Origin: Shigella phage 75/02 Stx
Length of the DNA stretch: 60,875 bases
Sequence record: KF766125
Strand: one strand, 5' to 3'
This document shows, piece after piece, positions 28,210 through 29,016 of the stretch. The notes below the pieces were generated by a model. It searched no databases. It had not been told where the DNA came from and worked only from the letters and a program-made list of their open reading frames with translations. The position numbers were made by a program, and so were the translations under genes. The number at the start of each line of letters is the position of its first letter. Within the stretch, counting starts at the first letter, position 1.

Positions 28210-29016
28210 ATGGCAAAGCTGGACTGGAAAAAGCTGGAGCAGGCATTCCGACGCGAACATGCCGAAACGGGAATAACATTACTGGACTGGTGCCGGAAGA
28301 AAAAGATTAATTACAACACCGCCAGAACCCGTATAAAAATGGGCAAAATCGATCATGAAATTGATCATAAAACCGATCATGAAATCGATCATGACATCTC
28401 AGATGAAGAACCCTGCAATGACGCGGGTTCCGGCGATGAAAAATGCGCAAAAAACTCTGAAAAAAACTGCGCAAATTCGGCAGAAACGAAACGGATTCGT
28501 GGTTCCCGACTTTTACCACCTTCAAACGCTTTTTCTCAGCGAAACACCCACGCCGTAAGACACCGTGGATATGCGAAGTATCTTGAGGCAGATAACCTCA
28601 TGGATGATGCGTCCGACATGGTGCTGTTCGATGAACTGGTGTTCACCCGGGCCCGCGCACTTTCAGTAACTAAGGCACTTAAAGGGATGTTCGCCGACCT
28701 GGAAGAGGCAACTGACGTGGAAACCCGTGTTGCTCTTTACGACAAAATACTCAAAGCTGAACAGGCCCTTGACCGGAATATTGCCCGTATCGAGTCAATT
28801 GAACGCTCATTGCTGACGCTGGACGTCCTGGCTGAGACAGCACCAAAACTTCGTGCTGACCGGGAAAGAATCAACGCCGCCAGAGATAAACTCAGAGCTG
28901 AAACCGATATTCTGACCAGCCAGCGTCGGGGCGTTGTTACGCCTGTCAGTGACATCGTGTCATCGCTGCATGAAATGAGTAATTCGGGGAGACTGGATGA
29001 CATTCCGGAAGAATGA
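28210..29016 (+). CDS. Putative terminase small subunit
   Basis: 268-aa ORF immediately upstream of and overlapping terminase large; N-terminal HTH-like region; contains GATC repeat cluster. Confidence 0.5.
   Translation: MAKLDWKKLEQAFRREHAETGITLLDWCRKKKINYNTARTRIKMGKIDHEIDHKTDHEIDHDISDEEPCNDAGSGDEKCAKNSEKNCANSAETKRIRGSRLLPPSNAFSQRNTHAVRHRGYAKYLEADNLMDDASDMVLFDELVFTRARALSVTKALKGMFADLEEATDVETRVALYDKILKAEQALDRNIARIESIERSLLTLDVLAETAPKLRADRERINAARDKLRAETDILTSQRRGVVTPVSDIVSSLHEMSNSGRLDDIPEE
28347..28392. repeat. Tandem 12-bp repeats carrying four GATC sites
   Basis: cgatcatgaaat / tgatcataaaac / cgatcatgaaat / cgatcatgac; GATC at 28351, 28363, 28375, 28387. Confidence 0.7.

Follow-up and report, generated by a model that had tools for sequence, protein, structure and literature searches.

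In the 60,875-nt sequence of Shigella phage 75/02 Stx (KF766125; this whole stretch is called the window below), a 12-bp tandem repeat lies inside the gene for the small terminase subunit (TerS), and we propose that this repeat is probably the part of the packaging start site (pac) that TerS recognises, with the hexamer principle of phage P1 operating in a different terminase family. Judged by sequence comparison, the repeat is the form taken in this lineage by a hexamer array that small terminases with an N-terminal domain resembling that of P1 PacA carry, and the pac reading is supported by the position of the array, by arrays selected at the DNA level across the family, by their linkage to the DNA-binding domain, by the homology of that domain to PacA and by equivalence to the P1 hexamers. 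Tandem Repeats Finder places the repeat at 28346-28398 (period 12, 4.4 copies, 82% matches, consensus AAATCGATCATG), and its in-frame units, ATC GAT CAT GAA / ATT GAT CAT AAA / ACC GAT CAT GAA / ATC GAT CAT GAC, are translated as IDHE IDHK TDHE IDHD, which are residues 47-62 of TerS and directly follow the third helix of its N-terminal domain. The GATC sites start at 28351, 28363, 28375 and 28387, a span of 40 bp, and each is the core of a YGATCA hexamer (one TGATCA and three CGATCA), so that the array has an exact 12-bp spacing, occupies gene nt 140-181 and begins 3 bp after the domain-coding segment, within a linker that is predicted to be disordered.

The first-pass annotation had described four GATC sites in 40 bp as part of a 12-bp tandem repeat inside a putative small-terminase gene, and this description was borne out by Tandem Repeats Finder, by the positions of the sites and by the match of the gene product to PHROG 370. 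It had also proposed counting GATC across the window as a measure of enrichment; the count showed the repeat to be the densest cluster, no other site in the window having more than two GATC per 40-50 bp, while GATC as a whole is under-represented (165 observed versus 236-265 expected). By a Poisson estimate, four or more GATC fall within 40 bp with a probability of 5e-6 per position, and multiplication by all 60,875 positions brings this to about 0.3. The four sites are copies of one duplicated unit and not independent events. Asp-His codons nearly force GATC, so that its density does not speak for selection at the DNA level: synonymous resampling of the peptide gave a mean of 3.3 sites against the 4 observed (P = 0.43), and the enrichment, being explained by the peptide, was rejected as evidence of selection. 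This result favours the strongest alternative to a pac site, namely that a disordered linker contains a neutral in-frame repeat prone to slippage, in which GATC is a by-product of Asp-His codons and the DNA has no role in packaging. The 12-bp unit is indeed in frame, the region is predicted to be disordered and all four hexamers share a single reading frame. A separate tetranucleotide, CTAG, was strongly depleted across the window (6 versus 25 expected).

Evidence against a neutral repeat comes from related phages. The TerS region of the window is 100% identical to those of the Shiga toxin (Stx) 2 phages 86, VT2phi_272 and PA2, in which the gene is annotated as TerS, and 99.9% identical to those of several other short-tailed Stx phages, and a 1-kb stretch around the repeat matched 220 phage records, nearly all of them short-tailed Stx phages of Sepvirinae; the phage that carries the repeat is a 933W-type short-tailed Stx2 phage. 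Genomes in IMG/VR and GTDB supplied 68 distinct TerS genes in which the linker DNA was read, and 15 of these were 933W-type alleles. The genes outside these 15 have 5-8 copies of TGCGCA each, except for five from Pectobacterium, Brenneria and Symbiopectobacterium which have TTCGCA or no TGCGCA in the linker, and carriers of TGCGCA were found in E. coli (about 76% identity), Citrobacter, Serratia, Yersinia, Brenneria and Aeromonas (about 40% identity). The copies are almost confined to gene nt 130-305, which often holds all or nearly all of those in a 3.8-5.8-kb locus, and they are read as xxT GCG CAA (Ala-Gln), GTG CGC AAA (Val-Arg-Lys) or AAA TGC GCA (Lys-Cys-Ala), most arrays using two or three frames. 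In each of 16 representatives 5-7 TGCGCA were observed versus 0.4-1.1 expected from synonymous resampling (P < 2e-4). Across the arrays as a whole there were 4-9 hexamers for the same expectation of 0.4-1.1, with P < 2e-4 for arrays of at least five hexamers and P = 0.0012-0.0014 for the four-hexamer arrays L182 and L183. Arrays at the same position as that of the window are thus clearly selected as DNA and mostly run through two or three frames, a first point against neutral slippage.

Other hexamers take the place of TGCGCA in some lineages. The Pectobacterium, Brenneria and Symbiopectobacterium alleles have five TTCGCA in two frames, and Salmonella alleles have 3-5 YGATCA (both TGATCA and CGATCA, encoding SDQK SDHK NDHE) which begin at gene nt 140 and keep a 12-bp phase, just as the window array does. 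An unbiased count of 6-mers returned TGCGCA, TTCGCA or GATCAT/TGATCA as the top word of the linker in all representatives but one, a three-hexamer Salmonella allele (L109) in which several words are tied at two copies, and the flanks are alike among the hexamer classes (AAAA-N-hexamer-AAA). The homologous TGCGCA, TTCGCA and TGCGAA arrays resemble that of the window in their gene position (nt about 130-230), their A-rich flanks and their association with a PacA-like domain, but they differ from it in having a central CG instead of AT, and hence no Dam site, and in having a variable spacing of 7-14 bp in mostly two or three frames where the window array is 12-bp periodic in one. Arrays of 4-9 such hexamers were seen across phages of Enterobacterales and Aeromonas, at TerS gene nt about 130-400 in L039, L041, L050, L058-L107 and L181-L184, and no description of TGCGCA arrays in TerS genes was found in the searchable literature.

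The array also tracks the DNA-binding domain across TerS architectures, a second point against neutral slippage. A second architecture (335-365 aa with a Zn-ribbon body, from phages of Klebsiella, E. coli and Yersinia) has only the N-terminal 60-75 residues in common with the first, and it carries hexamer arrays from gene nt 137-143: nine TGCGCA in three frames and two clusters in Klebsiella phage ST405-OXA48phi1.3, four TGCGCA in E. coli phage 473R12, five in PHB10 and four TGCGAA in Yersinia phage vB_YenM_06.16-1 (P from <2e-4 to 0.0014 by synonymous resampling). A Salmonella allele with a swapped, unrelated N-terminal domain (L111, 2501-3334; the only allele of this kind whose DNA was read) has no hexamer array. 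Its linker contains two different 12-bp tandem duplications, AATCCGTCTAAA/ATTCCGTCCAAA and GGACGGACGGAT/GGACGGACGAAA, which may be sites for its own DNA-binding domain. Among genes with the PacA-like domain, a third helix of the form ARR(Y/H)(I/L)K goes with TGCGCA, AKRYI(T/K) with TTCGCA or TGCGAA and ART(R/Q)IK with YGATCA, but this covariation in sequence is no more than suggestive: only 10-40 nt separate the helix codons from the array, and the two are co-inherited.

The comparison with phage P1 links the array to a functional site; an account of P1 pac, with its seven hexamers and the part played by Dam methylation, is given in PMC10028697, which cites Sternberg & Coulby. The N-terminus of TerS matches PHROG 1711, the P1 PacA family, at E = 2.4e-6, PacA in turn matches PHROG 370 at E = 1.9e-4, and BLASTP aligns TerS residues 4-90 with PacA 1-91 (E = 0.009). 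The match is limited to the N-terminal 45-90 residues of TerS, the C-terminal parts being unrelated, and on these alignments the N-terminal domain is distantly homologous to the N-terminus of PacA. In both phages GATC hexamers (TGATCA/G in P1) lie inside the small-subunit gene soon after the N-terminal DNA-binding domain, and are coded as Asp-His or Asp-Gln; both phages also package by headful and transduce (PMC3752737). The P1 hexamers are at pacA nt 193-232 (four) and 323-352 (three) and encode ...IIDHSNDQHAGDH... (IIDH.NDQ.GDH), and when these proven hexamers were put through the same synonymous resampling there were 8 versus 2.1 expected (P < 2e-4). That the functional hexamers of P1 are coded in the same way as those of the window also counts against slippage. 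A PacA of 70% identity keeps the hexamers while its peptide shifts to NDQSSDHKNSDH. Wherever a GAT CAN unit is read in frame in the window, the Salmonella alleles, P1 or this 70%-identical PacA, Asp is followed only by His or Gln, the pair that CAN can encode, and the neighbouring residues differ among lineages; this is what conservation of the DNA word GATCA predicts, and it is a further point against slippage.

The layout differs from that of P1 in several respects. In P1 the hexamers form one cluster of four and one of three, separated by about 90 bp that hold an integration host factor (IHF) site and the cut (the annotated P1 genome places the pac cut at pacA nt 275-284, adjoining the IHF site), whereas the window has one 12-bp-phased cluster. 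There was no second GATC cluster in the window, the sites next to the array being at 28123 and 29296, and no IHF-like site was found in 27883-29194 as a match to WATCAANNNNTTR with at most one mismatch. The large terminase subunit (TerL) had no similarity to P1 PacB by BLASTP (best E = 3.7), and both match only the broad PHROG 2. The site at 28123 belongs to a fifth CGATCA (28122-28127), which is 88 bp upstream of the TerS start codon and flanked by a direct AAATAT repeat (AAATATCGATCAAATAT); no counterpart to it was seen upstream of the Salmonella alleles.

Motifs of the TGCGCA type are present on either side of the window array (Table 1). TGCGCA stands at gene nt 130 in E. coli, Citrobacter and Salmonella alleles, and in the Salmonella alleles it immediately precedes the YGATCA units, at the point where the window has TGGGCA. 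The TGCGCA pair about 50 bp past the GATC array is the only close TGCGCA pair in the window (2 observed versus 0.35 expected from the peptide, P = 0.03 by synonymous resampling), and the first member is altered in some natural 933W-type alleles to TGTGCA or TGCGCC. This pair of TGCGCAAA motifs may be a second downstream cluster or half-site, or a relic of a TGCGCA-type ancestor. Several relatives have a second hexamer cluster 70-150 nt past the first, and a bipartite layout may be general in the family. The existence of mixed arrays hints that recognition may be lax at the two middle bases of TG-NN-CA.

Table 1. Features of the small-terminase locus and its neighbours (positions are those of the window).
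Feature	Position	Strand	Evidence or remarks
Small terminase (TerS) gene, 268 aa	28210..29016	+	PHROG 370 'terminase small subunit', E = 3.8e-125
N-terminal helix-turn-helix domain, aa 1-46	28210..28347	+	Predicted helices 6-20, 24-31, 35-41; third helix YNTARTR; pLDDT 75-88
TGGGCA, degenerate copy of relatives' first TGCGCA (gene nt 130)	28340..28345	+	Direct reading of the window
Disordered hypervariable TerS linker, aa 46-119	28345..28566	+	Predicted; pLDDT ~30; holds repeat and TGCGCA-type motifs
Array of four YGATCA hexamers	28350..28391	+	CGATCA 28350, TGATCA 28362, CGATCA 28374, CGATCA 28386
Spacer, YGATCA array to TGCGCA pair	28392..28443		Predicted first-cut zone by P1 analogy
Two TGCGCAAA motifs	28444..28473 (motifs 28444-28451, 28468-28475)	+	Starts 28444, 28468, 24 bp apart
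C-terminal long helical hairpin, aa 127-239	28588..28926	+	Predicted; pLDDT >90; most conserved part of alignment
Large terminase (TerL)	28997..30703	+	PHROG 2 'terminase large subunit', E = 1.2e-53; start overlapped by TerS
P22-type portal	30703..32847		Follows TerL; PF16510, E = 8e-127

Several observations weigh against the repeat being a pac element. Besides the shared reading frame of the four hexamers, the codon test is weak for the window itself (4 YGATCA observed versus 1.75 expected, P = 0.03-0.07 by synonymous resampling), and a protein-level or slippage origin is compatible with this sequence taken alone. Alleles with 3, 4, 5 and 7 whole in-frame units were aligned at the DNA level and partial proteins have 1 and 2, as slippage would produce, and this natural variation indicates that the exact number of units is not critical. 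The homology to PacA covers a short stretch and is modest in strength (hhalign E = 1e-4 over 44 columns, probability 56%), the covariation of helix and hexamer could reflect the physical linkage of the two, and a simple helix-to-hexamer code, which was considered, is weakened by P1 PacA, which has ARRY yet uses TGATCA. The mixture of YGATCA and TGCGCA motifs in the window complicates a model with a single specificity, and no paper mapping the pac site or virion ends of a 933W-type phage was found, the literature giving 'headful, 933W type', terminal redundancy and transduction.

Population data bear on the same question. The repeat-bearing segment is present in 386 of 5,426 complete E. coli genomes. 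Of 387 E. coli records, 348 have an identity of 99% or more and 17 one of 90-95%, and the four-unit allele is dominant, which does not sit well with a neutral repeat prone to slippage; the one 90-95% record that was fetched (H99) has a three-unit allele. Among 18 alleles of equal length, the domain-coding segment has one polymorphic site in 137 nt and the array none in 51 nt, so that the block of domain plus array has one in 188 nt while the following 142 nt have 40, and by these counts the block acts as a conserved module that ends at a recombination junction. A 368-bp contig of Xanthomonas pisi DSM 18956 (L102) was also found to encode a peptide that matches the C-terminal 79 residues of TerS at 100% identity; the contig is most likely an assembly of contaminating reads. 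Taking the related arrays, the domain linkage, the coding of the P1 hexamers and the dominance of one allele together with the points in its favour, we regard neutral slippage as a rather unlikely account of the repeat, albeit the one with most to recommend it among the alternatives.

A second alternative is that the repeat is kept for the protein: the Asp-His linker would respond to metal or pH and so adjust the assembly of TerS or its binding to DNA, and the DNA motif would be incidental. The Asp-His dipeptides are invariant in all 933W-type alleles, and the linker does connect the DNA-binding domain with the oligomerisation core. However, Gln freely replaces His in homologous arrays (SDQK, SDHK, NDHE), most relatives have Ala-Gln or Val-Arg-Lys at that place, the linker is otherwise hypervariable and it is the DNA word, not the peptide, that is common to the lineages, all of which makes this explanation improbable. 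Least credible of all is a Dam/SeqA-responsive element unrelated to pac (SeqA sequestration of new DNA, or tuning of late genes by methylation), for although four GATC at 12-bp spacing form the densest cluster in an otherwise GATC-avoiding genome, SeqA targets are hemimethylated GATC pairs about a helical turn apart (textbook) and lysogeny of 933W is influenced by host Dam (Murphy et al. 2008, as cited in PMC3342100), a scan for promoters and terminators gave no promoter-like or terminator-like site near the array, the conserved word is YGATCA and not GATC alone, and the replacement of GATC hexamers by TGCGCA in relatives fits a protein-binding array and not a methylation sensor.

The two parts of the earlier suggestion, a pac site and its control by methylation, fared differently. 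The candidate pac site with P1-like hexamers in the small-terminase gene gained support from the PacA homology, from the equivalent position and coding in P1 and from the arrays of the family and of the second architecture, but its supposed methylation sensitivity did not: the enrichment of GATC follows the peptide, the two-cluster layout with IHF site of P1 is absent and most relatives use TGCGCA, TTCGCA or TGCGAA, hexamers without GATC, so that Dam control is not a property of the family. P1 encodes a Dam-type methylase, dmt, whereas the window phage has no recognisable one; no [DNS]PP[YFWH] motif was present in any open reading frame (ORF) of at least 80 aa in the window and no methyltransferase domain was detected by Pfam in the 20 ORFs scanned. 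The relative phi24B encodes a putative Dam (PMC3342100), and the close relative VT2phi_272 has a BsuBI-type restriction-modification pair beside cI. Methylation dependence of such hexamers is proven for P1 alone, and its extension to the window array is a plausible extrapolation to which we would give only about one chance in a few.

The identity of the gene as TerS agrees with its setting and with the predicted architecture of its product. It lies directly upstream of TerL and overlaps it, with the portal gene next, and an AlphaFold2 model (mean per-residue confidence, pLDDT, of 68) has an N-terminal helix-turn-helix domain and a helical core, the long C-terminal hairpin being the presumed oligomerisation core. 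In an alignment of 27 homologues the linker is of low complexity and unalignable and both its flanks are conserved. No family scored above threshold when TerS and TerL were searched against Pfam, and structure and fold searches with TerS returned no solved homologue, giving only chance matches and generic coiled coils.

A pac site is expected in this phage type since 933W is reported to have terminally redundant DNA and to carry out generalised transduction (PMC3752737), and the 'headful, 933W type' assignment was made by TerL phylogeny (PMC7317114, PMC6029569). The start points of GenBank records were considered as a proxy for mapped ends and rejected, as the one suggestive record, phi315, is simply linearised at TerL and has a generic note. 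Among well-studied systems, P22 (gene 3) and Sf6 resemble the window in being short-tailed headful phages that have a P22-type portal and whose pac lies within the coding sequence of TerS (PMC9611059), but the P22 signal consists of one asymmetric sequence of about 22 bp and not of a hexamer array, and the P22 and Sf6 TerS proteins are unrelated in sequence to that of the window, which has no Pfam or PDB match. The pacL and pacR boxes of SPP1 and the R sites of lambda cosB are, from textbook knowledge, repeated short sites for the helix-turn-helix domains of oligomeric TerS and are spaced for engagement by several subunits, as we propose for the window. Unlike the window array, they are longer, lie partly or wholly outside the TerS coding region and are not known to contain a methylation site, and the small terminases of SPP1 and lambda are not detectably homologous to that of the window.

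From these comparisons we infer how TerS might bind the array, where the cut might fall and what methylation might contribute. Several DNA-binding domains of one TerS oligomer, each on a flexible linker of about 70 residues, would bind successive YGATCA hexamers, which lie approximately one helical turn apart, and the bound TerS would position TerL to make its first cut at a nearby point, which may lie in the 50-bp spacer ahead of the two TGCGCA motifs; headful packaging would proceed from that cut. As every hexamer contains GATC, the array would be Dam-methylated in E. coli, and TerS would have at least to tolerate N6-methyladenine at the centre of its site.

Two further regions of the window were noted away from the terminase genes. 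Short tandem repeats at 10148-10767 (a 16-bp unit twice, 11-bp units 2-2.5 times and GAACAG 5.5 times) lie at and just inside the start of a 362-aa ORF (10267-11355) upstream of a DnaC/IstB-like gene, and look like the iteron region of a replication origin. A single ORF of 2,806 aa at 47946-56366 in the late region presumably corresponds to the 8-kb gene that has been noted in phi24B and its relatives (PMC3342100).

Phages of the 933W type carry Shiga toxin genes, and the work gives them a precise, testable pac candidate at 28350-28391, with a possible cut zone at 28392-28443, which is tied to P1, the one system with proven, methylation-controlled hexamers. The combination of a domain with its own presumed target array, in four hexamer variants with matching changes in the third helix, amounts to a natural experiment on how TerS reads DNA, a process that has proved difficult to demonstrate by biochemistry in P22, Sf6 and SPP1 (PMC9611059), and the pattern points to a simple way of predicting where pac lies in many prophages. 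Should methylation dependence hold, host Dam would be linked to the spread of toxin phages. A wider idea, which we hold as tentatively as methylation dependence itself, is that a self-encoded hexamer array starts packaging in Stx phages, that the hexamer is switched together with the recognition helix of TerS and that the Dam-site hexamer of the 933W and Salmonella lineages makes initiation methylation-dependent. Were this true, the family would hold a natural series of packaging-specificity cassettes, and the Dam status of the host would gate both production of Shiga-toxin phage and transduction, an epigenetic control point in a medically important phage.

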